A DNA stretch of 64,000 nucleotides. Source: Polyangiales bacterium (GTDB lineage Bacteria > Myxococcota_A > Polyangia > Polyangiales > Houyiibacteriaceae). The notes under the pieces are model-generated. The model made no database searches. It saw only the letters and a program-made list of their open reading frames with translations, and was not told the DNA's origin. Positions 9,832 through 61,153 of the stretch are shown piece after piece. The stretch is taken from assembly GCA_965227405.1 (NCBI GenBank), contig OZ245758.1, positions 1,449,693-1,513,692 on the forward strand, in the 5' to 3' direction. A program made the position numbers and the translations under genes. Numbering within the stretch: position 1 is the first letter of the stretch; each line of letters opens with the position of its first letter.

Positions 9832-11573
9832 GTGAGAAGAAGAAAGAGCGGAAGGTTAAGATCTGGCGTCCAAAGGTCGAGGCTGAAGAGCCTGCTCCCA
9901 AAGAGGAAACCACCGCGATCACGCCGTCGGCACCGGCCAGTCTTGATGTGCGCGGGTTGCTCGACGACCTGCGTGCCTCCGTCGAAAAGCGCGACAAAGA
10001 AACACTCGTCGGTCTGTTCAAAGACATCGGCCGTGTTTCGTTCGACCGCATCAGCGAGTACGCCGACGCCGACCGCGCCCTGATGATCGCCATGAGCGGG
10101 TTCATCGAGGCCGCCGCAAGCCGTTACGCCATCGACCCTGGAGCACAGTGGGCTCAGGGTGAACCGCTTCGGCTACTCCTCGCTGGATATAGCGGTACGC
10201 GCAACACCGGTGCTGACGTTCGCGTCGAAGAGATGATTCGTCAGTTCCGCCATCTCTTTGGCGATGAGCATGTGGCGCTAAGCATCTTCACGCTCGATCC
10301 CGAGCTGACCAAGGGCTACTTCCGCACCGTTCGTCAGCTGGAACTGCCCAAGCTCTTCCCGAAGTTCCTCTTCGACACGATTCACGATCAGCACGCCGTC
10401 ATCGCGTGCGAGGGATCGATGTTCAAGAGCAAGTTCGCCAACGCGCTGAGCACCATGATGGTCGGCGCGATCGGTTTGGCTGCTGCCGAAGGTAAGCTGG
10501 CTGTGGGCTACGGCGGCGAAGCCGGCAAGATGGACAAGTCGCTGGCTCGCCTGGTGAAGAAGTACTGCCAGGACGCGCTGATCATCGCGCGCAACGAGAA
10601 CAGCAAGAAGATCCTGGGCGACCTCGGCGTCGCTTCGCGCAGTGGAACCGACACCGCGTGGACCTTCGATCCTGCACCGCCCGAGGTGGGTCGCAAGATC
10701 CTCATGGACCAGGGCTGGGACGGCAAAATGCCGATTCTCGCGCTGTGTCCGATCAATCCCTTCTGGTGGCCGGTCAAACCGCATGTGCGTCGCGCCGCGA
10801 TCAACGCCGCAACCGGTGTCTACAAGGACAGCCACTACGGCAGCGTCTACTTCCACAAAACCGGCTTCGACGTGGTCGAAGCACAGCACCGCTACTTGGG
10901 TTCGATCGCAACAGCCGTCGTGAAGGTGTTGTCCGAGGGCGAGCGCTTCTTCCCGGTCATGTTCGGCAGCGAACAGCTCGACCGCGAAGCCTGTGAGTCG
11001 ATCGACCGCAAGTTGGTACGTCGCTTGGGAGCGTTCGCGCCCACACGACCGGACGGCTCCAAGGGCTTCCCGATCATCGTCAGCGATGAGTACGACATGT
11101 ACCAGATGGTCAGCGCGATGCGTCAGTCCACGTACATGATCAGCAGCCGCTACCACGCGTGTGTCATGACCATGGCCGGCGGTGTTGTGTCCGGTGGCGT
11201 CACCATGGACGAACGCATTCGCAACCTGATGAAGGACCGCGGCACACCCGAGCTTGCGCTCGAGGTGGACGATCCGGATCTCTACGAGAAGACCTGCACG
11301 ATGATCCGCCACATGATCGCCAACGCGGATTCGATTCGCGAAGGCATCGATGGTTGTGTGTACGCCAACCTCGAACGCATGGGTGAGATGGGCCAGATTC
11401 TGGTCGACCACGTGCGCAAGCATCACCCGGAGTTCCCGTTCCGACCGGAGCTCGGTGAACACGGCGACCCCTGGGATCACCTGCCGACCTTGCCGCCTGC
11501 TGTGGCCGAGTTGGTGCAGCGTGTTCGTGCCCGAGGCCCCAAGGCCGTTCCGCAGTTGGAAGCACGAGCATGA
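9828..11573 (+). CDS. Polysaccharide pyruvyl transferase family (CsaB/WcaK/ExoV-like) protein with an about 100-aa N-terminal extension
   Basis: Probable GTG start at 9828 in a GTGA overlap with the upstream stop. The start is uncertain, and an internal ATG near 10080 is an alternative. LLLAGYSGTRNTGADV matches the family signature GYYGxxNxGD. C-terminal ISSRYHACVMTMAGGVVSGGV matches the conserved R-h-H C-terminal block. Confidence 0.65.
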   Translation: MSEKKKERKVKIWRPKVEAEEPAPKEETTAITPSAPASLDVRGLLDDLRASVEKRDKETLVGLFKDIGRVSFDRISEYADADRALMIAMSGFIEAAASRYAIDPGAQWAQGEPLRLLLAGYSGTRNTGADVRVEEMIRQFRHLFGDEHVALSIFTLDPELTKGYFRTVRQLELPKLFPKFLFDTIHDQHAVIACEGSMFKSKFANALSTMMVGAIGLAAAEGKLAVGYGGEAGKMDKSLARLVKKYCQDALIIARNENSKKILGDLGVASRSGTDTAWTFDPAPPEVGRKILMDQGWDGKMPILALCPINPFWWPVKPHVRRAAINAATGVYKDSHYGSVYFHKTGFDVVEAQHRYLGSIATAVVKVLSEGERFFPVMFGSEQLDREACESIDRKLVRRLGAFAPTRPDGSKGFPIIVSDEYDMYQMVSAMRQSTYMISSRYHACVMTMAGGVVSGGVTMDERIRNLMKDRGTPELALEVDDPDLYEKTCTMIRHMIANADSIREGIDGCVYANLERMGEMGQILVDHVRKHHPEFPFRPELGEHGDPWDHLPTLPPAVAELVQRVRARGPKAVPQLEARA

Positions 11574-16918: not shown

Positions 16919-17243
16919 GTTCGGGGAATTGGGGCCCCGAGGTCGAGCGCAGGAAGGGGGGCATCCTCCTCTCACCGTCGCTGTGTTTGCGTCGTCCGCC
17001 TTCTGTAAGCGCTGCGTCTTTCGCTGCGCCTGAGAGTCGTCAACCCCCGCATCCTACGCTTCCCTCGGGGGTCGTTGGTTCCAACGCACTCCGTCGCGGC
17101 TCCAGATCGCTGCCGGGATCACCGAACACCGCTTGTGTGATCAATGCGCGTCGTCGTCCACTGCTCCGCAGTGTCGCCGCCGCGAATTCGGAGCCGCCCC
17201 GCTGGGCGGCAGTTGCAACGTCGACTGCCGTCGTCCTTCAACC

Positions 17244-17497
17244 GCAATCGCTGTCGCTGCCGCTGTCGCTGTCGCGATCGGCCTTCGCTGTCGCAGTCGC
17301 GATCGCAATCGCCATCGCAGTCGCAGTCGCGATCACAATCGCCATCGCCTTCGCAATCGCCTTCGCAATCGCAGTCGCGATCACAATCGCCATCGCAATC
17401 GCCATCGCAGTCGCCTTCGCCTTCGCTTTCTCCGTCGCTGTCGCCGTCGCTGTCGCGGTCGCAGTCAAAGCAGTCAAAGTTGCGATCGCAGTCGAAG
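17244..17497. repeat. About 250-bp degenerate hexanucleotide array (GCNATC/GCNGTC)n. All six frames are open and dipeptide-repetitive: (AI/AV)n, (SQ/SR/SP)n, (DC/DG/DS)n.
   Basis: Read directly (gcaatcgctgtcgctgcc...gcgatcgcaatcgccatcgcagtcgcagtcgcgatcacaatc...). Track ORFs 17119..17520(-), 17144..17584(+) and 16987..17535(+) all derive from it. Confidence 0.85.
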
Positions 17498-17580
17498 AGC
17501 CCACCAACGCAAATCTTCAATCAAGGTCGAGTTAATCAATACGCATTCCTAGTTCCCAAGAAACCGCCTATAACCCCCAC

Positions 17581-37951: not shown

Positions 37952-39079
37952 TTAGGCGCGTCGGGCAAGCGGGGATCCGACCGCTTTCACTGCCGCACAT
38001 GCGCGTTCCACGGCTTCTTCTGCAGGCGCGACCACGAAGATCAGCTCTTTGTTTTCCGTGTGCGAAACCTTGCCCACCTTCTGACCCTTGGGATTGTGGA
38101 TTCCGATCTTGGCTCCGACGTACCGACCGAATGCAACGGGAACAACACCCACGTGGCCTTTGCTCTCGAGAATGCTCACCACCACGTCGCGAGAGAGGTA
38201 GCCCTCGTTGTTGAACGAGACGACCAGGTTCGGAGCACGAACCGCGTCCACGACCGCGCGAAACGCGTCTTCGATCTTGCGCTTGGAGTTGAACTCGCTC
38301 TTTCGTTCGCGACAGTCCGTTCGTTTGCGGGCAACTCCATACGCTTCAGGCGCGTCCCAACGAACGAGCGTTTCCCAGATGTGATAGTTGCCTAAGTAGC
38401 TGTGCTGGTTGTACGGCGGGTCGAGATACACCGCGTCGAGATCCTGCTTCGCGGCTTCGAGCGCATCGCCTTCGCGCGCGTGTCCCTTCCCAGGAACGAG
38501 CTCGGGCAAACGTAACTGCAGATCATTGTGCGCGCGCTTCGCCCATTTCTTGAGATAGGCCATCTGCACGCCCGTTGTGCTGTCCACGCGATCCGCCGCC
38601 TCCATCAGGGAGACAAGAACAATCGCGCGTACGTTTTCGTTCAGGTCGAGTTCGTCGATCGCATCTCGGATCGCGTCGACCTTGGCGCCGTTCTTCGGAT
38701 GGAAGTAACGAGCGTCGCGGCAGAAGGTTTCCGTGAAGTAGCCGTCCTTCGGTGTGACCGAGGCGAGCTTGGCGAGATGTTTCTCGGCGTGTTCTGCATC
38801 TTGTTGTGTTGCCGCGACGTAACAGCGAGCAAGCGTCGCCGCGAAACGGAGTTGGTCGTTGGCGAAGACTTCGTATCCGGCTTCGCGTAAGGCACGACCG
38901 ACTCGCGCCGTTCCGCTGAACAAGTCGCCGACACGCTTCACATTGGGAAGCTCCGCGAACGCCGCCAGGATGTGCGGAAGCAGAAGGCGTTTGGATCCGA
39001 GGTACTTGATCACGTCGGCGGCGACACCATAGGACGGAACGCCGAGGTTTTTGGTCCTTTTCGGGGGAGTGCGGTTCAT
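37952..39079 (-). CDS. Dam-family (D12-class) DNA N6-adenine methyltransferase, with no adjacent restriction gene
   Basis: KYLGSKRLLLPHI (cf. Dam KWAGGKRxLLP) and YLDPPYNQHSY (DPPY catalytic motif). The ATG at 39077-39079 lies inside a dispersed repeat element. An internal GTG (VAADVIKYLGSKR) is an alternative start. Confidence 0.8.
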   Translation of the reverse strand: MNRTPPKRTKNLGVPSYGVAADVIKYLGSKRLLLPHILAAFAELPNVKRVGDLFSGTARVGRALREAGYEVFANDQLRFAATLARCYVAATQQDAEHAEKHLAKLASVTPKDGYFTETFCRDARYFHPKNGAKVDAIRDAIDELDLNENVRAIVLVSLMEAADRVDSTTGVQMAYLKKWAKRAHNDLQLRLPELVPGKGHAREGDALEAAKQDLDAVYLDPPYNQHSYLGNYHIWETLVRWDAPEAYGVARKRTDCRERKSEFNSKRKIEDAFRAVVDAVRAPNLVVSFNNEGYLSRDVVVSILESKGHVGVVPVAFGRYVGAKIGIHNPKGQKVGKVSHTENKELIFVVAPAEEAVERACAAVKAVGSPLARRA

Positions 39080-39107
39080 TTCTGACCCTGTCCCCAAACT
39101 GAACCCC
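39073..39107 (-). repeat. Dispersed palindromic repeat element, copy A (subfamily 1). The minus strand reads GGTTCAGTTTGGGGACAGGGTCAGAAATGAACC, with an about 35-bp conserved extension running into the Dam 5' coding region.
   Basis: Near-identical to copy E (59871-59905). Inverted relative to copy D (59777-59809). Confidence 0.7.
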
Positions 39108-39158
39108 CAAAAGAATACCCGCCGCATGGTGGTGCGGCGGGTTTCGATAGGTTCGGGT

Positions 39159-39500
39159 TTAGCTCAGTTCGACTTTGCCGTGGTCGTCGCAGTGGTCGCC
39201 GTGCGGGTGATGCAGGTGACCATCGACGATGTAGTCGACGTGATCTCCATGAGGAACCGCCTCATGACCGCATCCCGGTCCATGAACGTGATCCGCGTCA
39301 TGACCGCCACAGGTATGCGCCGGAGTGCAGTCTGCAGGGTTGTCCGCGCTCACATCAAGCGCGTGCTCTTCGACCGTTCCGTCCGCCTTCGGGTGGTGCA
39401 AATGACCGTCGTGGACAAAGTCGACGTGGTCACCGTGCTTGATCGCGGTGTGTCCACAGTCGGGTCCGTGCTTGTGGTCGTGGTCGTCATGAGTATGCAT
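39159..39500 (-). CDS. Histidine-rich putative metal-binding protein with an internal duplication (113 aa, about 30% His)
   Basis: Two copies of HGPxCGHxAxxHGDHVDxxxDGHLHHP. 11 bp downstream of the ArsR/SmtB gene. Confidence 0.65.
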   Translation of the reverse strand: MHTHDDHDHKHGPDCGHTAIKHGDHVDFVHDGHLHHPKADGTVEEHALDVSADNPADCTPAHTCGGHDADHVHGPGCGHEAVPHGDHVDYIVDGHLHHPHGDHCDDHGKVELS

Positions 39501-39511
39501 TGTCGATCTCC

Positions 39512-39850
39512 TTAGTCGTGCGACGCGTGCTCCAACGCGCCCCGAACCAACTCACGAACGTGATCATCCGCGAGCGTGTAATAAATGTGCTTGCCTTCAC
39601 GACGGCGCTTTACGAGCCCTTCAGAACGCAAAATCTTGAGACGCTGAGACACCGTGGACATGCCGTCCCCGCTCTCCGCGGCGAGGTCCGTCACGCAATG
39701 CTCCTCGCACAAAAGGCAGTGCAGAATGCGCAGCCTTCCTGGATCCCCCGCCGCGCGGAACAGCGCAGCGGCACGTTCGAGCACCTCCGGTTTGACCGGA
39801 GCGTGGTCGCGACCTGAGTGGTCGTCGGAATCACACGTGTCGTGAACCAT
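39512..39850 (-). CDS. ArsR/SmtB-family metal-sensing transcriptional repressor
   Basis: wHTH GRLRILHCLLCEEHCVTDLAAESGDGMSTVSQRLKILRSEGLV. Candidate metal ligands CDSDDH (N-terminal), CxxC in alpha3, HASHD at the C-terminus. Confidence 0.85.
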   Translation of the reverse strand: MVHDTCDSDDHSGRDHAPVKPEVLERAAALFRAAGDPGRLRILHCLLCEEHCVTDLAAESGDGMSTVSQRLKILRSEGLVKRRREGKHIYYTLADDHVRELVRGALEHASHD

Positions 39851-41017: not shown

Positions 41018-41024
41018 GGTTTCG

Positions 41025-42857
41025 TCAGTGTGCGTGGCCGTGACCGCCATGCCCGTGACCGCCATGCCCGTGACCGCCATGTCCGTGACCGCCATGTCCG
41101 TGACCGCCGTGTCCGTGACCATGTCCGTGGTGCCCGCCGAGTGCTGCTAGCCAACCGCGTAGACCCGAGAACCACACCCCTGCACCGGCGAGCAAGCAGA
41201 GCAACGCAAGTCCCACGTTGGCCCACCAGCCGTGAGCGTGTGCATGACTGTGATACGCAACGGGAACCGTCGGATCGAGCGCGTTCAACCCCACGCCAAC
41301 ACCCCACGCCACAACAACCAGACCCGCAATGGCACCCAGCGCTGCACGAGCTCCATACGCCGCACGAAGCCAGCCCACCGTGGCCAGATTTGTGGCGGGG
41401 CCAAGCAGCAGCCCGACGAGCACAGCACCCGGTGAAAGACCTTTGCCGATCAAGACCGCGGCCAAGGGCGTCGCACTTGTCGCGCACACGTAGCTCGGCA
41501 CAGCGACCATCGTCACGACCAGGAAGTCGGCGAACACGCCCCACCCTTCGAAGGCATCGCTCGGAAGCACGGCCTGCAGATACGCCGCGGCGAGCAAACC
41601 AACCGCGGTCCAAGGCAGCGTGTGTCGCAACACTTCGTCGAGCTGCGCAAAGAAGAACTTCAGGCGCGAGCCCTCAGGTCCTGTATCGACGACTGGACCG
41701 ATCTCGGGCGCAATGGTCTGACGCTTTTTCAGCAACGAGGAGACCAGTAGTGCCGCCACGAGCGAGACCGCCATGGCCGCGAGCAAGCGCGTCCACGCAA
41801 AGGTCCAACCGAGGAACTTCACCGAGAGCGCAAAGGTCTCGATGCCCAGCTCAGGCGTCGCTAGGAGCAACGCAACCACCAACGCTGGCGCCGCTTTGCG
41901 CTGCTTCAGTGATTGCGCGACAGGCAAGATCCCGCACGCGCAAATCGGCAAAGGCAGCCCCAACAGCACGCCCTTTCCAGCTAGGCGGAACGACGAACCA
42001 CCTCGCAGCCAACGATCTGGAATGTGTCGTCCGAACGTTTGGAGAATCGCCGCAAGCGTGAGTCCGATCAGGAGAACCGGCGCCGTTTCCAAACTCAACT
42101 CGAGCAACGCTGCGCCCGTGTCCGCACGAACGCTCTCGGCAAGATTGATCCCACCAACACCAGGGTGACCTTGCCCAAGAACCACCAAGGTCACCCCCGC
42201 AGCAGCCGCACCAAAATCGGTGAGCCGAGCTGCCCAACCGGTTGGCATCGCGGCAGTCCACCCGTGCATCACCACGTGGAGGAGCAAACCCGCCGTGGCG
42301 GCCGACACCCAGGGATGCGCAGCCATCAGCGCATCGGTGGGCACCAGGTTCACCAACAACACCCCAACCACGGCACACGTGGCGAGAATCCCGGCGCGCA
42401 TCAATGCGTGCTTCATCCCTCGAGGGAGAAACGCGAGCACGACCATCACAGTCACGGGAACCGCATGCGCAGCAACCGCAAAGAGAACATCAAACGATGG
42501 CGCGACCGGACCCACGCCGGGCCAAATCGGCGAAGCAAAGTGACCCAGCGCAATCCCGTCGGCGACCTTGTGGAGACACAGGCCCACAAAACCAAGCTCG
42601 AGACCGAGTGCACGGTTGCTCGACACGTGCGCCCATCGATCCAAGCCCGCGGCGAAAACCAGACTCAGCGCAAACACGACAAGCGCAACCAAGCCAACGC
42701 CGGCGAGTGCTTCGGGCAGCAGGTGCACGAGCACCACACCCAACGCAGACACAACAGCAAAGGTCTGAATGCCCGTGAGTGCGGTGGCTGTCCGCGAGAG
42801 CGCGAGCAGCGTGCCGAAGACGACAGACCCGATGGCGATGGCCAACGCGATGGTCAT
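41025..42857 (-). CDS. Metal transporter fusion: N-terminal ZIP-like (ZupT-like) half, C-terminal DUF318/ArsP-type permease half (CxC motif), and a C-terminal (HGHGG)n His-rich tail
   Basis: ZIP-like HKVADGIALGH. DUF318-like LPICACGILPVAQSL. C-terminus GHHGHGHGHGGHGHGGHGHGGHGHGGHGHGGHGHAH. About 14 TM segments. Confidence 0.7.
   Translation of the reverse strand: MTIALAIAIGSVVFGTLLALSRTATALTGIQTFAVVSALGVVLVHLLPEALAGVGLVALVVFALSLVFAAGLDRWAHVSSNRALGLELGFVGLCLHKVADGIALGHFASPIWPGVGPVAPSFDVLFAVAAHAVPVTVMVVLAFLPRGMKHALMRAGILATCAVVGVLLVNLVPTDALMAAHPWVSAATAGLLLHVVMHGWTAAMPTGWAARLTDFGAAAAGVTLVVLGQGHPGVGGINLAESVRADTGAALLELSLETAPVLLIGLTLAAILQTFGRHIPDRWLRGGSSFRLAGKGVLLGLPLPICACGILPVAQSLKQRKAAPALVVALLLATPELGIETFALSVKFLGWTFAWTRLLAAMAVSLVAALLVSSLLKKRQTIAPEIGPVVDTGPEGSRLKFFFAQLDEVLRHTLPWTAVGLLAAAYLQAVLPSDAFEGWGVFADFLVVTMVAVPSYVCATSATPLAAVLIGKGLSPGAVLVGLLLGPATNLATVGWLRAAYGARAALGAIAGLVVVAWGVGVGLNALDPTVPVAYHSHAHAHGWWANVGLALLCLLAGAGVWFSGLRGWLAALGGHHGHGHGHGGHGHGGHGHGGHGHGGHGHGGHGHAH
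41031..41120. repeat. 15-bp tandem repeat (gtgaccgccatgccc, about 6 copies) encoding the (HGHGG)n tail
   Basis: Read directly. Confidence 0.85.
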
Positions 42858-42913
42858 GCACGCCTCATGTCCTTGAACCTACAGGCGAAACGCCCGGGCG
42901 CAAGGATCCTGCA

Positions 42914-45712
42914 CTAGGCGTCCGGTGCGGTAACCTTTTTGGCGGCTTTCTTCTTCGCAGCCTTCTTGGTCGTCTTCTTCGCGGCCTTCTTGGTCGTCTT
43001 CTTTTTGGCGGCCTTCTTGGTCGCCTTCTTCGCAGTCTTCTTCTTAGCTGCCTTCTTCGTCGTCTTCTTGGTCGACTTCTTCTTGGCTGCCTTCTTGGTC
43101 GACTTCTTCTTCGCCGCCTTCTTTTTCTTCTTCTTCGGGTTCGCGGCTTCTCGCTCCCGACGAAGCTGCAGCAACTCGGCCGCGCGGACGACGTCGATGG
43201 TCTTCGGATCGTCGCCTGTACGCAGCGACGCGTTGGTATCGCCATCCGTCACGTAGGGGCCCCAACGACCCTCCTTCAACACGATGGGCTTCTCGCTTAC
43301 CGGGTCGGTCCCGATCTCGCGCAGCGGCGGCTTCTCCACCTTGCCGCGTCGCTTCTTCGGTTGCGCCAAGAGTTTCAGCGCATCCTCAAGTGTGATCGTA
43401 AAGAGCTGGTCTTCGGTTTCGAGACTGCGGTTCTCTTTGTTGTGAACGATGTAGGGCCCGTAGCGTCCGTTGAACGCCATCACCGGCTCACCGTCCGCAG
43501 CGATGCCCACCTCACGCGGTAGCGAGAGCAACTTGAGCGCCTGGTCGAGCGTGAGCTCTTTCGGCTCCATGCTCTTGAGCAACGACGCTGTCTTCGGCTT
43601 CTCCTTGGCGTCCTTGCCACCCTCGCCGAGCTGTACGTACGGCCCGTAGCGACCCGCCTTGAGGAAAATCGTCAGGCCCGTGTCGGGATCGGCGCCGAGT
43701 TCACGGTCATCCGAAGGCGCGTCGAGAAGTTCGATCGCTTTCGCGAGATCCAACTCGTCCGGTGCGAGGTCGGGTGGAATCGACGCGGTCTTCTTGTCGT
43801 CGTCGACACCGGTCTGCACGTAAGGGCCGTACTGACCCATCCGAATCACAACGGCTTTGCCGTCCTCGGTTTTGCCGAGCGGAAACGTCTCGAGACGCTT
43901 CACCTCTTCGAGGTCGATCTCGTCCATCTTGGTTTTGACGCGGGTCTCCAAACCCTCGTCGCCCAAGAAGAAATCCTCGAGGTACTTGCTGCGCTTGCCC
44001 GACCCACTCGCGATCGCATCGAGGTCATCCTCCATGCGCGCGGTGAACTGGTAGTCCACCAAATCGCCGAAGTGCTCCTCGAGCAGACGCACGACCTGGA
44101 ACGCCTTGAACGAAGGAACGAGTGCACGTCCCTTCTTCCACACGTACCCACGGTCTTGAATCACGGACATGATCGACGCGTAGGTCGACGGGCGTCCGAC
44201 ACCCAACTGCTCCAGCATCTTGACCAACGACGCTTCGGTGAAACGCGCAGGTGGCTTGGTCTCGTGACCGGCCACCTCAAGGTCCGTTGCGGTGACCTTC
44301 TGGCTCTTCTTGAGCGGCGGCAGTTGCTTCTGGTTCTTGGCGAGATCCTTTTCGGGATCGTCGCTGCCTTCCACGTACGCCTTCTGGAAACCAGGGAAGG
44401 TAATGGTCTGACCACTCACACCAAAGAGCACCGACTTGCCGGCGGTGGTCTTGGCTTCAAGCGTCACGCTCAGGGTCTGTCCCTTCGCATCGGCCATCTG
44501 TGAGGCCACGGTGCGCTTCCACACCAGCTCGTAGAGCTTGGCTTCTTGCGCACCCACTTCCTTGGCCACCTGCGCAGGCATCTTGAACTCGTCGCCCGCG
44601 GGGCGAATCGCCTCATGAGCCTCTTGCGCGTTCTTGACCTTGCGCTTGTAGATGCGCGGCTCTTTCGGGACGTAGTCGTCGCCGTAGAGCTCTTTGATCT
44701 GCTTGCGCGCGGCGTCCAATGCCGTGTCCGAAAGCGTAGTGCTGTCGGTACGCATGTAGGTGATGTAACCGGTTTCGTAGAGGCGCTGCGCAACACGCAT
44801 TGTGCTGCGTGCACCCCAACCAAACTTGCGGCCTGCTTCCTGCTGAAGCGTCGAGGTCATGAACGGCGGCGCCGGTCGACGCGTCAAAGGACGCGTTTCG
44901 ACGGAAGCAACCGTAAAGCTCTTGCCCTTGAGATCGGTCGCCAATGTGTTGGCTTCCGCCTCGCTGAGGCACACGACATCTTTCTTGAGCTTGCCGTCCG
45001 CACCGAAGCTCTGACCGGTCGCGACGCGCTTGCCGTCGAACTCTTTGATCTCGGCTTCGAACTTCTCGTCCTCTTGCGTGACGAAGAGTCCGTCGAGATC
45101 CCAATACGACGCACGTACGAATGCAATGCGCTCACGCTCGCGCTCAACCACGATGCGCGTCGCAACACTCTGAACGCGACCCGCGGACTTACCGCGGCTC
45201 TTACGGCGCGACATGTCGCTCATCGCAAAGCCGTAGAGTCGGTCGAGAATGCGTCGTGCTTCTTGCGCGTCGACCAAACGCGTATCGATCTCGCGCGGAT
45301 TATCGACGGCCGCGAGAATCGCTTTCTTGGTGATCTCGTGAAACACCATGCGCTTCACGGGCACCTTGGGGTTGAGCACCTCCACGAGGTGCCACGCGAT
45401 GCTCTCCCCTTCGCGGTCCTCATCAGTCGCGAGCAGAAGTTCATCGGACTGCTTCAGAATCTTCTTCAGCTGCGCGATGTGCTTCTTGCGATCCGGGGAC
45501 ACGATGTAGAGCGGCTTGAAGTCGTCCTCCACATCGACCGCGTAGGTCTTGATGTAGGTGTTCTTGGACTTGACCTCTTTGGTGAGCTCCGAGGGCCGCG
45601 CGAGATCGCGGATATGCCCAATGGAAGACTCCACCACGAAGTCAGAACCCAAGTATTTCCCAATGGTTTTGGCCTTGGCGGGAGACTCGACGATGACGAG
45701 GGCGCGGGACAT
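42914..45712 (-). CDS. topA: DNA topoisomerase I with a Lys-rich (AAKKK/TKKAAKKK)n C-terminal tail
   Basis: Toprim N-terminus MSRALVIVESPAKAKTIGKYLG...GHIRDL. Type IA topoisomerase core. About 90-aa Lys/Ala/Thr tail. Confidence 0.95.
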   Translation of the reverse strand: MSRALVIVESPAKAKTIGKYLGSDFVVESSIGHIRDLARPSELTKEVKSKNTYIKTYAVDVEDDFKPLYIVSPDRKKHIAQLKKILKQSDELLLATDEDREGESIAWHLVEVLNPKVPVKRMVFHEITKKAILAAVDNPREIDTRLVDAQEARRILDRLYGFAMSDMSRRKSRGKSAGRVQSVATRIVVERERERIAFVRASYWDLDGLFVTQEDEKFEAEIKEFDGKRVATGQSFGADGKLKKDVVCLSEAEANTLATDLKGKSFTVASVETRPLTRRPAPPFMTSTLQQEAGRKFGWGARSTMRVAQRLYETGYITYMRTDSTTLSDTALDAARKQIKELYGDDYVPKEPRIYKRKVKNAQEAHEAIRPAGDEFKMPAQVAKEVGAQEAKLYELVWKRTVASQMADAKGQTLSVTLEAKTTAGKSVLFGVSGQTITFPGFQKAYVEGSDDPEKDLAKNQKQLPPLKKSQKVTATDLEVAGHETKPPARFTEASLVKMLEQLGVGRPSTYASIMSVIQDRGYVWKKGRALVPSFKAFQVVRLLEEHFGDLVDYQFTARMEDDLDAIASGSGKRSKYLEDFFLGDEGLETRVKTKMDEIDLEEVKRLETFPLGKTEDGKAVVIRMGQYGPYVQTGVDDDKKTASIPPDLAPDELDLAKAIELLDAPSDDRELGADPDTGLTIFLKAGRYGPYVQLGEGGKDAKEKPKTASLLKSMEPKELTLDQALKLLSLPREVGIAADGEPVMAFNGRYGPYIVHNKENRSLETEDQLFTITLEDALKLLAQPKKRRGKVEKPPLREIGTDPVSEKPIVLKEGRWGPYVTDGDTNASLRTGDDPKTIDVVRAAELLQLRREREAANPKKKKKKAAKKKSTKKAAKKKSTKKTTKKAAKKKTAKKATKKAAKKKTTKKAAKKTTKKAAKKKAAKKVTAPDA

Positions 45713-46128: not shown

Positions 46129-46205
46129 GTCGATCTAGTTCCTAGAAAAGTGGGTCTGCCGAGATAGCGGATCCCTTTCGGGCGTGCAACTCACGCCAAA
46201 GTCGA

Positions 46206-46249
46206 GGTGTAAATTCCAGGGACAGGTTCATTAATGAACCGACCCATGG
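46206..46249 (+). repeat. Dispersed repeat element, copy B (subfamily 2): GGTGTAAATTCCAGGGACAGGTTCATTAATGAACCGACCCATGG, with a conserved extension (AACTnnCTGAAAT) shared with copy C
   Basis: Contains the perfect palindrome GGTTCATTAATGAACC. Its ATG starts track ORF 46234..46572, which is rejected as a gene because it is antisense to the sulfatase 3' end. Confidence 0.65.
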
Positions 46250-46294
46250 TCGCCAACTACCTGAAATCGCTCAGGTCGAGAAAACGAGCGACCC

Positions 46295-49200
46295 TCAGTC
46301 GCAGTACTGCGTCAGACCACGCTCGCAACACGACTCGCGACTCGCGTATCCAAGCGCGCAGTTCTTCGCAGCCTGCTCGTCGTCGATCTCGACTGTCACG
46401 CCTTCGACCGCTCCTTCACGAGCAGCCTGGCTCTGTTCGCTCAGCGTCGACTGCAGAACCTCGAGATCGGCTTCCGAAGACTCAGCAACGTTTCGCTCTT
46501 CGCCCGGATCGTAGTCCACACGATACAGCTCCACTTCCTCGAGCCCGCGCGGGTTGCGCGCGTTGGCCGTGATCAGCTTCCACTCGTCGGTGCCGCGACG
46601 CTGACGAACCGACTCGAGCACGTTGCCCTCGTGGCTCTCCTCCGCGTAGACGACGTCACTGCCCTCGAAGATGTCGCCACCCTGCATTCCATCGGGCGGC
46701 TCGAGACCGGCGAGACCCACCAAGGTCGGCATCAGGTCCACACTCTGCGTCCAGTGACCAATACGCGTTCCACCACGCGCGTTGTTCGGCAGCTTCACGA
46801 AGAGCGGAATCCGGATCTGCTCGTCGTAGAGCGTCGTGCCGTGCCAGAACCCGCCGTGCTCGCAGAACTCCTCACCGTGGTCAGACGTGATCACGATGGT
46901 CATGTCGTCGTACACACCACGACGCTTCAGGTCTTCGATGAGCGCGCCGAAGTGCTCGTCCCAGTACTCGATCTCGCCGTCGTACAACCCGCGCAGACGA
47001 TCCGCTTCCGAAGGATCCGGGCGCTGGTTGGCCGCACGTGAGTAGCCCGTTCCGTCGTAGGGATGCGGATAGTAGGGATCGTGCGGATCCATGTAGCCGA
47101 CGAAGAAGAAGAAGGGTCGGTCCGAATCCACTTCGTCAAGCCAGCGCGAAACCGTGGCGTTGACGTGCGTCGCATCTTGGTACGCCACACCGGGTGCCAC
47201 CCGTCCAAGCGCAGCGTCGATCTTCTCGCTGATTCGCTTGAACACCGACATCAACAAGAGCTTCGCAGCGGCGTCATCGGCGCCAAACACGTAGTTGGGC
47301 TCGAGGTATTCGTAGCTGTCGAAGCCCTGACCGAAGTTGTAGTAGGGCGCGACGTTGTGGTTGGTCGCGACACCACGCGTTTGCCAACCGGCGGCACGAA
47401 AGACTTCGGGCATTGTGACCAGCTCATCGGAAAGTGCCGAGCTCTTGTCCATGACGCCGTGGCTCGAAGGCATGCGGCCCGTCATGATCGAAGCGAAGCT
47501 CGGACGCGTCCAACTCGCGTTGGCAAAGGCCATGTTGAAACGAATCGCGTCTTCGGCGAACGAGTCCAAGTTGGGCGTTTCGATCGCGTCGTAGCCGTAG
47601 AGCGGAAGGTGGTCTGCACGCAGGGTGTCGACCACGATCACCAAAACGCTGTTGGCGTCGGCGGGTGCTTCGACCTCGTCGCCATTCGATAGCGCTTCAG
47701 CCGGATCGCCGTTGAAGAAGGTCGCGAGCGAAAGCACGCCGCAGAGGATTCCGACAACCACCGGAGAGCCCCACGCACGCAGCATGATCTCGCCGGGTCG
47801 ACGCGCGACGATCCAGCGCAGCCCCGCCGATACCGCGAGGTAGAGAATCCCGGCGCCCACAACACACGCGAGCAACACGCCAAGACCCATCGCGCTCTTC
47901 CAGACCAGCTCCTCATGAAACACGTCACGACGCACGCGGAAGGCGGTCAGCGCCAACCCAAAGAGCGCGATCAGAAACGCAGTCATGCGTGCATACGCAG
48001 CCGGTTCGGGCATCGCCGGTCGTTTCATCCAGCGACCCGAAAGCGCCAACACAAAGCCCATCCCTGCGCCCATGAGCGCGCAGAAGATTCCGTACACCAT
48101 CGCCCCGTAGGCGAGGACACCGGGACCGACCGTGCCGTTCCCCAAAGCAATGACCACAGCGGCTTCGCTGGTCCCAATAACTAAACCAGCGAGTGCACCG
48201 GCACCGAGGCCAATGGTCAGACCGCGAAGCGGCTTGGGCTGCTCGGCACGCTCAACCTCTTCGATGGCTTCGATGGCCCGTTGTTCGTGCTCGAGCTCGT
48301 CGACCTCGATCTCAGGCTTGTACCCGTCGCGACGCGCCAAAAAGATCAAACCGCCCACCGCAGATACAGTCATCTCACAGAGGATGAAGCCACCCGCCAT
48401 GAGCAGAATCGCCGCGGACTCTGGAAGACCGACAGCTGCAGACGAAAAGAGCGCAACCGCCGACATCTCGCGCAGACCCAGGCCGTTGATCGACGCAGGA
48501 AGAATCGTGGCGAGAATCGTGAGGTTCGCACCAAAGAAGACCACGCCGATCGGCAGGTCCAGTCCGAATGCTTGTGCGGAGCAAACGTAGATCAGGTTGT
48601 TGAACGCGTGGACACCCACGCCAAGTGCGAAGGCCTTCGCGAGGAGTTTGCCTTTGCCCTCGTAGGCGCACACCGCGTCGAGAAGCGTTTGGACGCGCGC
48701 TTGAACCTGGCGAGGCAGAAAGCGGGCGAACGTACGAAAGAGCTTCGGCTTGGCGAGCAGCAGCAGCGCCGTGCCGATGATACCGGTGAAGCAGGCGACC
48801 AGGATGTACACCGCGTTCATGCCGATGAGTTGCGCACCGAAGAGCAGTGCGCCGAAGACGACCACAACGCCCATGGCCGCTTGGCCGAGGAACGTCTCGA
48901 CACCGATCGTCGCTGTGGCGCGAGCAACCTTGCCCGTGTGCTTGGCGACGTCGTAGATGCGCCAGCCGCCAAAGCCGGTGAACCCCCCCGGAGTGAACGC
49001 GCCGAAGAAGCGCGCGATCATGATCGAGCCACCGAGAAAGCCCCAGCCTGGACGAATGCCCTGACCGCCGAGCAGCGTTTTCCAGCGAAGCGTCGCGAAC
49101 GAGATCGCGATCAACTGCATGACGATGCCAGCGCCGATCCATCCCCAGGAGATGTCGCTCAGCCGTGCCCACAGATCTTCGCTTCCGTCTCGCCCGAGGA

Positions 49201-55801: not shown

Positions 55802-55871
55802 GCCGGCTTATCGGCGCGGCTAAGCACCAGTTGCTTGTTCCGTCAGATTCAATAATTTCAGCCAGTTACAG

Positions 55872-55916
55872 CTCATGGGTCGGTTCATTTCTGAACCTGT
55901 CCCTCAAATTTACACC
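55872..55916 (-). repeat. Dispersed repeat element, copy C (subfamily 2). The minus strand reads GGTGTAAATTTGAGGGACAGGTTCAGAAATGAACCGACCCATGAG, 60-110 bp upstream of the minus-strand gene starting at 55801.
   Basis: About 85% identical to copy B over 45 bp, plus a shared downstream extension. Confidence 0.65.
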
Positions 55917-55992
55917 TGGGCTTTGACGGGGCGGTGTTGGTGGGCCATACATCCGGCCCCGCTGCGTATGACCCGCAGGGGCGAGATTTTCC

Positions 55993-58076: not shown

Positions 58077-58387
58077 GCCCCTGTTGGATCCAGGTCCGTG
58101 TGGGGACGTAGTCCGTACGGACCTGAACCTCGAAAACCGCCCGTTTCCTTCGCAGAATCGAACGCGACCCTGCTGCAACGGTTCTCTGCACGCGTGAAAC
58201 AGCGAGAACCGTTCGGTCTGCACGAGCGATTGGCGCATCGGTCCACAACAAGCCAAGCGCAGCACTTCCCTCTGAACGCACTCACACCAGACTTCGATCA
58301 CAGCCCCATCCCGGGAGCTGGTCGCGGGCCCTCCACATCTCCCCTCGGAATCGGCATCCCAAAAAGCCGATCGTGCCCGCGACCGAA

Positions 58388-58422
58388 CGCCTGACTGTTC
58401 GCAGTCGGGCGTTCTTCTTTTT
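58388..58422 (+). terminator. Intrinsic terminator (cgcctgactg-ttcg-cagtcgggcg plus TTCTTCTTTTT) about 310 bp downstream of the SDR gene. It delimits a possible small non-coding transcript.
   Basis: Read directly. The overlapping track ORF 58098..58394 is P/S-rich and not protein-like. Confidence 0.5.
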
Positions 58423-58441
58423 GCACTGATAGTGTGCCCAC

Positions 58442-59743
58442 ATGGCGTTTCGGGACGACCGCGAGGCTCTGCGAGCCAAAAGCGATGCGCTCGAAGCGGA
58501 TCTCGCCGAGGCTCAAGAGCGACTGCTCGAACTCGAGAGTCGTGGGGACGCGGACCAGCGGGAACTGCGACGTCTTCGTCGACAACTAGCGCGTGCAGTA
58601 CCGAGCCGTCGTGTTCCGGTTCTGTCCATCTTGGTGACACTCTTGTTCTTGTTGGGAGTGATCGGGGGAATGCTGGCGTTCAGCCAAGACGACGAAGCGC
58701 CCTCCGACACCGTCGACGAGCCTGAACAGGCTCCGCTTGCTCGAATCGAAACACCACCGCGTGTCGCATTTGGTGCACAGGTGATTCGCTCAACAGGAGC
58801 CACCATCGATTCGGGTTGCGTGTTCGTCGCAAATCTTGAGCGTGGACCTACGGTCAGTCGCTTGGTTGCGCGATGCGACGACCAGGTGCTCTTTGACTCC
58901 AACGTCGAGCAGCCGGGTGTTCGTATCCGGGACCATCAGGTGCACGAAATCGAACAGCACGAGTTGCTGCAGTACCGGTTGCGGTATCGGGACACGGGAA
59001 GTGCGGGCACACAAATCGTGGTCGATTCGCAGCATCGCCGTGCGCGGATTTGGAACGACGCGGTCGACCTTCGCTTTGCGCTGGACGATCGAAGTGGAGC
59101 GCGTGCGGGAGCACGGTTCGGACAGCCATTGTCGCAGCCGATTGCGGACTCGCTGCATGTTCGAGCGGTTCCGATGTCGAGCCGAGGCAACGCGCCAGAG
59201 TTGAGCGAGATGTGCGAGCTTCGCGTGCATCCCGCAGTGGGCCGCGAATCGCAGAACTGCCGAATCGTCGTGGATTGCGGGACGATTCTCTACGGTGCGA
59301 ACAACGGTGGGTACAACGAGTGCACCTTCGATGAGGGCCGACCCGATACCGCACGAGATTCACGCGGAGCCGACTTTGACGGGGACCCAAAGCTGACGCT
59401 GAACTTTCAGGAACGAACGCTCGTGGTCGAAGACGCGTGGCGCCACGAGTTCACCTTGGAAGAAGACGAACGTTGCCAGATCGCCGGAGCGTGGGACGGA
59501 GATTTCCGAAGCATGGGGCTGTACGTGTTCACGCAGAACGGCAGAACGCTCGCGACGACCGACCTCGCCGATTCGATGGTGTGGGATGCGCGGGTGGATT
59601 TGGACTGCAAGAGCGGACAGGGAACGATCGAGATCGACGACCACGGGTTGTTCGAAGGTCGATTTGGACCTGGCTTCCAAACCTTCGTGGGTCACGTGCG
59701 CAGCCTGGACGCGACGACCTTCTACCTAATGCGAACCGAGTAA
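58442..59743 (+). CDS. Hypothetical bitopic membrane protein (N-terminal coiled coil, one TM helix, about 340-aa extracytoplasmic domain)
   Basis: RVPVLSILVTLLFLLGVIGGMLAF TM segment. Confidence 0.55.
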   Translation: MAFRDDREALRAKSDALEADLAEAQERLLELESRGDADQRELRRLRRQLARAVPSRRVPVLSILVTLLFLLGVIGGMLAFSQDDEAPSDTVDEPEQAPLARIETPPRVAFGAQVIRSTGATIDSGCVFVANLERGPTVSRLVARCDDQVLFDSNVEQPGVRIRDHQVHEIEQHELLQYRLRYRDTGSAGTQIVVDSQHRRARIWNDAVDLRFALDDRSGARAGARFGQPLSQPIADSLHVRAVPMSSRGNAPELSEMCELRVHPAVGRESQNCRIVVDCGTILYGANNGGYNECTFDEGRPDTARDSRGADFDGDPKLTLNFQERTLVVEDAWRHEFTLEEDERCQIAGAWDGDFRSMGLYVFTQNGRTLATTDLADSMVWDARVDLDCKSGQGTIEIDDHGLFEGRFGPGFQTFVGHVRSLDATTFYLMRTE

Positions 59744-59776
59744 CCTTCGTCCCGCAATCGGGTAGATTGAGCAAAA

Positions 59777-59905
59777 GGTTCAGATTGGGGACAGGGTCAG
59801 ATCTGAACCGGACTCCTCCGAAAACGACCCACTTTCCTCGTGATCGCGAATTGTATGGTCACATAGTTCAGTTCAGTTCTGACCGTGTCCCCAAACTGAA
59901 CCCCC
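59777..59905. repeat. Inverted pair of subfamily-1 repeat elements: D at 59777-59809 (+) reads GGTTCAGATTGGGGACAGGGTCAGATCTGAACC, and E at 59871-59905 (-). They are separated by about 61 bp between convergent genes. MITE-like or bidirectional-terminator-like.
   Basis: D equals the reverse complement of A with 3 mismatches. E matches A with 33/36 identities. Confidence 0.7.
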
Positions 59906-59923
59906 ATCTGGGATTGAGGACGC

Positions 59924-61153
59924 TTAGGCGGAGTCGTGGTTCGCGTGTTGCGCCGCAACCATCGCGCCGGTCCACCACTCGTAGTCGCGTCCCATGGGAT
60001 CACCATCGGGGAAGAACACGAGGTAGCTCATCGAGTCGTAGGGAACAAAGCTCGGTCGACCCCCGGCCAGGTTTCCGATCTGGTGCACGGTTCGCCACGT
60101 TCCGGTGTTGAAGTACACGGCGTTGTTTCCATCCACGGTTCCGAGCGGAACCATCGACGAAAAGTGCGAGTGACCATTGACCACGTACTGAAAGCCTTTG
60201 CGCTTTCGTAGCTCTTCCACGCCACGCACGGCCATCTTCCCGTCCATGCCGTGCTGAATCATCTTGTAGACCTTCGTCAGCCGCTGGTCGCTTCCACGCG
60301 CCACCACTCGCTTGGTTGAAAGCTCCAACAAGAGCTTCAACTTCTGACCGGTATGGAACCCAAGTTTCTTGGACTCCGCGGCACGACGTTGACGCATCCA
60401 ACCCCGCACAAAGGGTTTGGAGAAAAAGTCCTCCACCAACATGGACCACGTTTGCCCTGCCGGCTTCAGCAGCTCCTTACGGATAATCCCCAGCTGACGC
60501 ACCCACGCCGGCACCGCGTAAATCGGTCGCACATCGTCGATGTCATCCAGCAGATTTCCCAGTGTGGGCTCGGGCAAGAGTCGCTTCACGTTCCGCGGAA
60601 AGCGCGTGATCAACTCCAACCCAATCGCGTCACCAATCGTTCCCTCTTTGGGATGCACGGTCGCATTGATCGGGTCACCCACGTGCCCGTGGTACGCGAG
60701 CACTTTGTGCTCCGGAAACTCCGCATCCGAACGAAACTCGACATCTTCGTCTTTGCCGGTGAGTGCTTTCCAGATCATCCGTCGTGACTTGGGCGCCGAC
60801 GCCAAAAGTCGGTCGTGGTTACCCAGCAAGTAGGTGATCTCGAGTGCACCCGCTTCAACCTGCTGACGAATCGCGGCAAAGAAATCTTTCTCACGATCCA
60901 GGATGCGTTCGACGATTCCATCGACGGTGTCGATCACTCCACCCACGGCTTCGTGGTACGGGCGGTACGCACCATCCAGCCACGTCGGCGAACGCACCAG
61001 GTCGAAGAGGTCGCCAGCAAACACCATCTTGGCGGGACGCTTGCCACGCGCGGCCTGAATCCGAGTCCAAAATCGCTCGAAGGTAAGCGCGCGCGGGATC
61101 GAGCTGCCGTGAAGCGCATCCGTGAGGTGGATGTCGCTCACGAAGATCAGCAT
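59924..61153 (-). CDS. Calcineurin-like metallophosphoesterase
   Basis: MLIFVSDIHLTD, GDLFDL, LLGNHD, YHGHVGDP metallophosphoesterase motifs. Confidence 0.75.
   Translation of the reverse strand: MLIFVSDIHLTDALHGSSIPRALTFERFWTRIQAARGKRPAKMVFAGDLFDLVRSPTWLDGAYRPYHEAVGGVIDTVDGIVERILDREKDFFAAIRQQVEAGALEITYLLGNHDRLLASAPKSRRMIWKALTGKDEDVEFRSDAEFPEHKVLAYHGHVGDPINATVHPKEGTIGDAIGLELITRFPRNVKRLLPEPTLGNLLDDIDDVRPIYAVPAWVRQLGIIRKELLKPAGQTWSMLVEDFFSKPFVRGWMRQRRAAESKKLGFHTGQKLKLLLELSTKRVVARGSDQRLTKVYKMIQHGMDGKMAVRGVEELRKRKGFQYVVNGHSHFSSMVPLGTVDGNNAVYFNTGTWRTVHQIGNLAGGRPSFVPYDSMSYLVFFPDGDPMGRDYEWWTGAMVAAQHANHDSA

Follow-up and report, generated by a model that had tools for sequence, protein, structure and literature searches.

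In a 64,000-nt stretch of the genome of a Polyangiales bacterium (contig OZ245758.1, positions 1,449,693 to 1,513,692; hereafter the window), the annotated start codon of a DNA methyltransferase gene lies inside a short dispersed palindrome, here termed copy A. We consider copy A to be one member of a lineage-restricted, extragenic family of nested-palindrome repeats that resemble repetitive extragenic palindromic (REP) sequences and their doublet form (REPIN), or miniature inverted-repeat transposable elements (MITEs), and we would give this reading a probability of roughly 0.6. We document here the repeat family, its architecture, its turnover between relatives and the corrected start of the gene. 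Judging by its orthologs, the gene almost certainly begins at a GTG codon (39013-39011, minus strand) downstream of the repeat, and the extended 375-aa model is an annotation artefact over an ordinary REP-like repeat. The copies in the window are as follows:

Copy A, 39053..39105, minus strand: 58.5 bits (E 4e-12) in a hairpin covariance model; follows the stop of a His-rich gene by 53 nt, past the canonical terminator of that gene, and its tail ends 39 nt before the GTG.
Copy A arm 1, 39105-39097, minus strand: GGTTCAGTT.
Copy A loop, 39096-39082, minus strand: T-GGGGAC-AGGGTCAG.
Copy A arm 3, 39081-39073, minus strand: AAATGAACC, which includes the ATG at 39079-39077 and is followed by GCAC.
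Copy A TCCCC, 39068-39064, minus strand: followed by the A-rich tail CGAAAAGGACC, reaching 39053.
Copy B, 59777..59862, plus strand: 57.8 bits; hairpin at 59777-59809 with arms GGTTCAGAT and ATCTGAACC, and tail to 59829; begins 33 nt after the stop of a 433-aa gene.
Copy C, 59870..59902, minus strand: inverted relative to B, 52.7 bits; begins 21 nt after the stop of a 416-aa metallophosphoesterase gene and faces B in a convergent spacer.
Copy F, 58091..58137, plus strand: 46.9 bits; CAGGTCCGT - GT GGGGAC GTAGTCCGT - ACGGACCTG, followed by AACCTCGAAAAC; begins 14 nt after the stop of a short-chain dehydrogenase/reductase (SDR) gene.
Copy D, 46194..46267, plus strand: member of a divergent subfamily (AGGGACAGGTTCATTAATGAACCGACCC), antisense to both flanking genes.
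Copy E, 55855..55928, minus strand: belongs with D to the divergent subfamily and occupies the divergent spacer that separates rpmE from a 203-aa gene.

The minus-strand sequence of copy A, read from 39105 to 39053, is GGTTCAGTTTGGGGACAGGGTCAGAAATGAACC followed by GCACTCCCCCGAAAAGGACC, exactly as the original prediction had given it. Its claim that this sequence is a dispersed repeat is also borne out: matches to a 33-mer at no more than three mismatches occur three times in the window as opposed to none in 100 shuffles, and the second copy, at 59777-59829, lacks the ATG and carries ATCTGAACC in place of the AAATGAACC of copy A. The recurrence is shorter than the 70 bp that had been claimed, since the similarity between copies A and B comprises 53 alignable nucleotides at 89% identity. 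The copy at 59777 had been recognized correctly, while the inverted copy C, copy F and the divergent copies D and E had been missed. Copies D and E are 81% identical over 74 nt, and the core GGGACAGGTTCAnnAATGAACCG is common to D, E and A. Copy F, which was found by screening GGGGAC sites for enclosing stems, is tied to the family independently by a 29-nt segment of 93% identity with positions 9909-9937 of the related locus L002 (related loci are designated L001, L002 and so forth), and its subtype is the one that occurs upstream of the methyltransferase gene in that locus. The hairpin covariance model (R1) scores copies A, B, C and F at 47-58 bits, detects nothing else convincing in the window and picks up D and E only weakly, giving four strong and two divergent copies dispersed over the 64 kb.

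The strong copies share a common order of parts, composed of a 5' arm, a loop starting with (T)GGGGAC, a complementary 3' arm, usually a TCCCC motif and a CGAAAAC-like tail. The TCCCC motif lies 10-21 nt downstream in most copies and can pair with the GGGGA of the loop. The GGGGAC of the loop is invariant, whereas the stem sequences vary between copies yet stay complementary, as can be seen from the following arm pairs:

Copy B: GGTTCAGAT/ATCTGAACC.
Copy C: GGTTCAGTT/AACTGAACT.
Copy F: CAGGTCCGT/ACGGACCTG.
L002, methyltransferase locus: GGTTCC/GGAACC.
L002b and L022a: GGAAGATC/GATCTTCC.
L022b: GGGATTC/GGATCCC.

In an alignment of ten sequences the stem measures 9-10 bp and 88% of the stem cells are paired; eight of the ten stem pairs have changed on both sides, a partly circular statistic (see below) that none of 500 shuffles reaches, and the covariation signal is abolished by sliding the partner columns. 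As a control, stems of at least eight Watson-Crick pairs were found at 5 of 79 GGGGAC sites, compared to 3 of 1580 with shuffled flanks. Likewise, a downstream TCCCC partner is present in nine element copies, with only two further cases among the 88 GGGGAC sites in total. The elements occur both as singlets (A, F) and as inverted doublets. In the B-C doublet, two inverted 33-nt units placed 60 nt apart form one long hairpin (DNA dG -36.6 kcal/mol, z -6.6), and the L002b/c doublet likewise forms a long hairpin (z -5.6).

Several variants of this architecture were observed in other loci. In the sister lineage, the 5' arm together with its G-run is tandemly duplicated at L002 9888-9915 (GTTCCATTCGGGGA GGTTCCATTCGGGGAC) and at L022 15005-15035 (GGATTCTGGGG TGGGATTCTGGGGAC); the duplicated arms create four G-runs with the potential to form a G-quadruplex. 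A symmetric variant is found in a metagenome-assembled genome (MAG) of the Polyangia (L020, 1865-1917), whose arms GGGGACAG and CTGTCCCC are complementary (z -3.75). Its symmetry suggests that the GGGGAC/GTCCCC inverted motif may be the oldest part of the family.

According to the gene map, all six copies in the window are extragenic and reside in intergenic spacers; the spacer of copy A measures 145 nt, from the stop of the His-rich gene (39159) to the GTG at 39013. In the sister lineage, copies follow the stops of His-rich, DUF6918 and ALAD genes at a distance of 2-15 nt, and copy L022b, like E, occupies a divergent spacer adjoining rpmE. Altogether, at six of about nine independent loci the element reads in the sense direction and follows a stop codon by 2-53 nt. 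The position of most copies just after a stop in sense orientation, together with the analogy to enterobacterial REPs, suggests that the elements are probably transcribed into 3'-untranslated (3'-UTR) or intercistronic RNA, in which the stem-loop would act in the manner of enterobacterial REPs, by protecting the 3' end or by partial termination.

These same features may be read in another way, namely that the element works as structured RNA within the upstream gene's transcript, either as a 3'-UTR hairpin or as one whose loop pairs with a downstream sequence (GGGGA:UCCCC), and is recognized by a specific RNA-binding protein or nuclease; it would then owe its dispersal to selection for this role rather than to mobility. 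The invariant GGGGAC loop on covarying stems, the sense placement after stop codons at about two-thirds of the loci, the recurrent GGGGA...TCCCC pairing and the tolerance of G-U pairs on the sense strand would all be expected of such a motif. We nevertheless regard it as unlikely. No Rfam family matches; D and L002c run antisense, and no gene upstream of E is co-oriented with it; inverted doublets, and copies that differ in presence even among very close relatives, are the usual behavior of DNA repeats; and the sample is small. Moreover, the two pairings would hardly form together: an H-type pseudoknot combining them was considered and rejected as sterically unlikely, judging from the geometry of a 4-nt linker that would have to span a 9-10-bp stem. 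As for Rfam, the window contains no match at the gathering threshold, and at E values up to 5 the elements are overlaid by chance matches only (microRNA, small nucleolar RNA and small RNA models).

A related but distinct proposal concerns the GGGGAC loop on freely covarying stems, which together with the recurrent TCCCC might be recognized by a protein specialized for it in this Myxococcota lineage. Such a protein might be either a RAYT-like (REP-associated tyrosine transposase) HUH transposase with a loop-reading mode unlike that of classical REPs, or a factor that binds or processes 3'-UTR RNA. We put this forward tentatively, as a rather unlikely idea.

Comparison with related loci revealed a rapid turnover of the elements. 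The gene order arsR, His-rich gene, methyltransferase, DUF6918, iron-containing alcohol dehydrogenase and HgmA is kept in L001-L008, and L027, which starts at the methyltransferase gene, has the same downstream gene order. An element is present in the spacer between the His-rich and methyltransferase genes in L001, L002/L003, L005-7, L008 and L027, but the subtypes at this locus differ by lineage, and L002 has an F-type loop (GGGGACGTAGTCCGTACGG). In L004, two genes are inserted in the spacer and the element is lacking, while the TGTGTGGTCAC box before the start is kept. L025 and L026 are more distant, and in them the methyltransferase gene directly adjoins or overlaps the one before it (of the arsR type in L025), leaving no spacer; no element was found there or anywhere else in the 42 kb of these two loci; L004 and L024 are also devoid of copies. 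The other sites in the window behave in a similar manner. Copies B and C are missing from the orthologous convergent spacer of L022/L023; D falls in a segment of ~85 nt that is inserted in comparison with L025/L026, and L002, L004, L025 and L026 all lack this copy; and the spacer that harbors F measures 365 nt in the window as opposed to 21 nt in L022, of the sister lineage. Conversely, the sister lineage has copies after its DUF6918 and ALAD genes, where the window has none. Different family members occupy the rpmE site in the two lineages, the hairpin at L022 15031 being of the same architecture as E.

The ends of two sequences are also informative. L008 and L027, two independent metagenome or Sequence Read Archive (SRA) assemblies, both end inside the element upstream of the methyltransferase gene (positions 1-38 and 1-54, respectively), as commonly happens when an assembly graph breaks at a multi-copy repeat. 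Beyond the related loci, a scan of the GTDB species representatives yielded 12 matches, of which 11 are chance-like and one, the Polyangia MAG L020, is plausible; the metagenome scan gave a single chance match in low-GC DNA, and the viral scan gave no matches. In these scans the family was thus essentially confined to this clade, with L020 as the sole plausible copy outside it.

The fast gain, loss and subtype replacement of the elements, their inverted doublets, their extragenic placement and the lack of a link to gene function are the reasons for the REP/REPIN-like reading. The elements would then be non-autonomous mobile or copy-converted DNA, and copy A would have come to lie before the methyltransferase gene by chance, its in-frame ATG in this strain being likewise fortuitous.

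A number of observations weigh against this reading. The element persists at the A locus in five lineages, which would also fit a locus-specific function. Only about six copies were examined in this genome, all from the 64-kb window. Five of the ten aligned sequences (F, L002b/c and L022a/b) had been picked by a filter that requires a stem, and the stem statistic is therefore partly circular. The folding of single copies is unremarkable (z -0.6 to -2.1), and a stable RNA structure of the single copy was rejected as a hallmark of the family on these same values. No transposase, RAYT or other, was seen across the window and ~300 kb from related loci: by Pfam, none stands beside any copy among the window genes adjoining the copies, and PF01797 (Y1/HUH, RAYT) is absent both from these genes and from the genes called in the fetched loci. 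No convincing target-site duplication was recognized at D, B-C or F, the only candidate being a GTCGAG hexamer near both ends of D. Finally, the element is unlike a canonical terminator in its loop of 13-17 nt, its A-rich tail and its lack of a U-tract.

The last point agrees with the terminator scan, in which a GC-rich stem and a loop of 3-8 nt followed by a U-tract were required. The possibility that the element is itself an intrinsic terminator was rejected, as the scan finds only a separate hairpin near copy A and none at B/C:

Intrinsic terminator of the His-rich gene (39159-39500), 39117..39142, minus strand: 10-bp stem with 8 GC pairs and a T-tract, located 5' of the repeat.

This terminator is present in L001 and absent in L002, and is separate from the repeat. 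Other identities were considered by eye against consensus sequences (sigma-54 or extracytoplasmic function (ECF) promoter, LexA box, parS, attC and CRISPR repeat), and none fitted.

When viewed next to known systems, the family shares with the REP/REPIN sequences of Pseudomonas and enterobacteria the short, imperfect, extragenic and dispersed palindromes, often placed just after genes. REPINs are outlined in one account as two inverted REPs separated by a spacer and mobilized by RAYTs (PMC3337134). As in these systems, singlets occur together with inverted doublets whose spacer folds with them into one long hairpin (B-C, L002b/c), and vertical inheritance is combined with turnover between close relatives, B/C, D and F being absent at the corresponding sister-lineage sites. 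Unlike REP/REPIN, the stems differ markedly within one genome and the GGGGAC loop is the invariant part; classical REP families keep their stem and a 5' GTAG-like tetranucleotide. The host belongs to an uncultured-type lineage of the Myxococcota, for which REP/REPIN-like repeats have no description that we could find, our literature search for REP or RAYT in myxobacteria having returned none.

The MITEs exemplified by the neisserial Correia elements offer a second comparison. The family resembles them in its size (about 50-130 bp), in the inverted ends of the doublet, in being inserted between genes near their starts and ends, and in the idea that an element can provide promoter or start signals. 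Correia elements can indeed carry promoter parts and create gene-start artefacts. In contrast, at D, B-C and F no target-site duplication was recognized, the singlet is a single hairpin rather than a unit bounded by terminal inverted repeats, and there is no evidence of promoter activity. What is new is this particular repeat family; the REP-like kind of bacterial repeat is known, and the combination of a fixed loop with free stems is an unusual trait.

The consequences of copy A for the annotation of the neighboring gene were assessed by comparison with its orthologs. The ATG at 39079-39077 lies inside the hairpin 3' arm of copy A, in frame with the methyltransferase open reading frame (ORF), so that the element does supply the annotated start, as had been claimed. 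An exact look-up retrieved the 375-aa MNRT... product from NCBI/ENA on a 9,074,070-bp contig, which means that the public gene call was made from the repeat ATG, and the same gene is called as 353 aa in other assemblies. The two parts of the extended model are as follows:

Methyltransferase coding sequence, corrected, 37952..39013, minus strand: starts at GTG 39013-39011; 353 aa, beginning (M)IKYLGSKR.
N-terminal extension, almost certainly spurious, 39014..39079, minus strand: 22 codons (MNRTPPKRTKNLGVPSYGVAAD), covered by no homolog.

The first 22 residues of the long form are left uncovered by all 120 best homologs (query coverage of at most 94%), and (M/V)IKYLGSKR forms the N-terminus in all 22 aligned orthologs. 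In keeping with this, GTG stands at the start position in the DNA of all orthologs examined, 39013-39011 is the only in-frame GTG, and the PF02086 match begins at profile position 1 with residue 4 of the 353-aa form. Close relatives do not maintain the upstream ATG in a usable state: L001, with 95% protein identity, and L027, a member of the same 90%-identity cluster, have 1-nt indels in the A-run that put it out of frame; the ATG of L005 is in frame but meets a stop once nine codons have been read; that of L008 is out of frame; and the element of L002 has no ATG. Because of these ortholog N-termini, the start of the domain, and the indels, stop and loss of the ATG in relatives, the true start is almost certainly the GTG at 39013-39011, and the 22-aa extension would not be translated. 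The extended call arose since the 3' arm of copy A happens to read AAATGAACC, which in this strain provides an in-frame ATG and lengthened the gene by 22 non-homologous residues.

The opposite view, that ATG 39079 is the real start and that the repeat contributes a genuine N-terminal peptide in this strain, can appeal to the ATG being in frame and used as the start in the public record, as well as to GGGACAGGG upstream, which could pass as a weak Shine-Dalgarno sequence. Set against the uniform IKYLGSKR N-termini, the frame-shifting indels in near-identical relatives, the in-frame stop in L005, the unusable or missing ATGs of L008 and L002, and the position of the Pfam domain, we consider it highly improbable.

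The original prediction had anticipated part of this outcome. The ortholog alignment that it proposed shows homology beginning at (M/V)IKYLGSKR, with the MNRT extension in none of the 120 homologs, and its suggestion that an internal GTG is the true start agrees with the ortholog starts. The particular GTG that it named, within VAADVIKYLGSKR (VAADV), does not exist: it was a misread, out-of-frame triplet, the valine codon in question being GTC (39025-39023). Similarly, the element contributes the ATG and about nine codons rather than about 12, and the extension amounts to 22 aa relative to all orthologs rather than ~14 aa. As for the suggestion that the element is the 5'-UTR, the stretch from the element to the GTG contains a -10-like TATGGT sequence, and transcription may therefore begin downstream of the element.

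A similar false start was observed at copy D, where an arm (AATGAACCG) begins a spurious ORF of 112 aa ('MNRPMVANYL...') at 46234-46572 on the plus strand, running antisense into the 3' end of a sulfatase/LPG-synthase gene. Any member of the family can seed false 'MNR...' gene starts.

The TATGGT sequence was further considered in relation to the claim that the element had donated a promoter to the gene:

-10-like sequence TATGGT, 39026..39031, minus strand: putative, 12 nt upstream of the GTG and not called by the consensus scan.

A scan for consensus sigma-70 promoters (-35 and -10 hexamers at a spacing of 16-18 nt) found no sites at 38900-39300 or at 59650-60000. At the aligned position of the -10-like box, L005 and L008 have TATAAG, L002 has TGTATGGT and L004 has TGTGTGGT; TATGGT may belong to the gene's own promoter. 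Promoter donation by the element is not supported: the other copies lie at gene 3' ends or in a convergent spacer, no sigma-70 site was detected, L004 keeps the -10-like box without an element, and in L025/L026 the gene abuts or overlaps the preceding one.

These findings also bear on a broader alternative, in which the element regulates the methyltransferase gene in cis (as an operator or upstream activating site, or as part of the promoter or 5' leader) and was later copied to a few further sites; methyltransferase expression would then depend on a palindrome-binding regulator or on an RNA structure. Its best argument is the recurrence of the element in the same spacer in L001, L002/3, L005-7, L008 and L027 despite the divergence of the surrounding sequence, with the -10-like box 40-55 nt downstream. 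In addition, copy B carries at 59849-59862 a 14-mer (AATTGTATGGTCAC) identical to that just upstream of the methyltransferase start in L002/L003, and the core GGGAC-N3-GGTTCA-N4-TGAACC-GA-CCC constitutes a 28-bp imperfect palindrome of the type bound by dimeric regulators. However, B, C, F and the sister-lineage copies are located after stops or in the convergent spacer, where there is no gene to regulate, and a sequence-specific DNA operator would not tolerate freely varying stems. The promoter scan, the box retained in L004 and the absence of a spacer in L025/L026 count against it as well, and we judge such a regulatory role to be quite unlikely. The REP/REPIN-like reading remains the one that we prefer.

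The gene itself had been called Dam, a designation that is too specific. Over residues 4-237, the 353-aa product scores 129.1 bits against PF02086 (the D12 class), which exceeds the gathering score, and its DPPY motif (DPPYNQHSY) is invariant in the ortholog alignment, whereas the NCBIfam dam model TIGR00571 gives 19 bits as opposed to a cut-off of 114.85. On this evidence the gene is classified as a D12-class N6-adenine DNA methyltransferase. It shares with the Dam protein of E. coli the D12-class fold family and the DPPY catalytic motif. In Dam, which is about 278 aa long compared to 353 aa here, the N-terminal KWAGGK is the equivalent of the xKYxGSKR motif. As in Dam, no nuclease gene was recognized among the neighbors of the methyltransferase gene. 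The sequence GATC appears in two settings: in the start region of the gene (39005-39013, minus strand, GTGATCAAG) it overlaps the start codon in every ortholog examined, and it is present in or beside the stems of several copies (AGATCT in B, GGATCC in F, and GGAAGATC...GATCTTCC in L002b/L022a).

Immediately upstream of the methyltransferase gene are genes for the 113-aa His-rich protein (39159-39500), an ArsR-family regulator (39512-39850) and an ArsP-type permease (41025-42857), the latter having a 15-nt tandem repeat (41020-41135, minus strand) that encodes a C-terminal (HG)n tail (GHHGHGHGHGGHGHGG...). Together, these genes look like a metal-handling cluster.

Two of the spacers that harbor copies display additional features. 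That of copy F (58077-58441) contains a strong terminator-like hairpin with a T-run (about 58385-58425), which stops only ~20 nt short of the ATG at 58442. A sub-threshold Rfam 'sar' match at 58375-58418 (30.9 bits versus a gathering score of 43) is probably just this hairpin, and a small RNA gene between F and the hairpin is conceivable. In the spacer of copy E, the stretch upstream of rpmE (encoding ribosomal protein L31) at 55940-55992 corresponds to L022 14930-14985 and includes a GC-rich hairpin (CCCCGCTGCGTATGACCCGCAGGGG) on the rpmE strand; positions 55939-55979 are 97.6% identical to L022 over 41 nt, and the rest of the spacer has been replaced. This conserved stretch is probably the rpmE promoter or leader.

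Periodic sequences of other kinds were noted elsewhere in the window. The C-terminus of topA (topoisomerase I, 42914-45712) is a Lys/Ala-rich tandem repeat (KKAAKKKSTKK...) encoded by DNA of 12/15-nt periodicity (42908-43161, minus strand). An Asp/Cys-rich periodic ORF (DCDGDCDGDCDRDCDC...) at 17119-17520 on the minus strand and repeats ~53 nt long, with a spacing of 159/237 nt, at 50-2883 both look like cysteine-rich repeat-protein modules.

In practical terms, the gene model of the methyltransferase is to be corrected to 353 aa from GTG 39013, compared to the 375 aa of the public record, and the case illustrates that an ATG carried on a dispersed palindrome (the AAATGAACC arm) can cause false N-terminal extensions. 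For the Myxococcota, the repeat family presents an unusual pattern of conservation, in which the loop is fixed and the stems are free. Should the loop indeed be read by a dedicated protein, the elements would represent a new, functionally selected hairpin system and thus more than decaying repeats. Discovery of a cognate transposase or binding protein would add a new phylum to the range of REP-RAYT systems; failing that, the family is a routine intergenic repeat.

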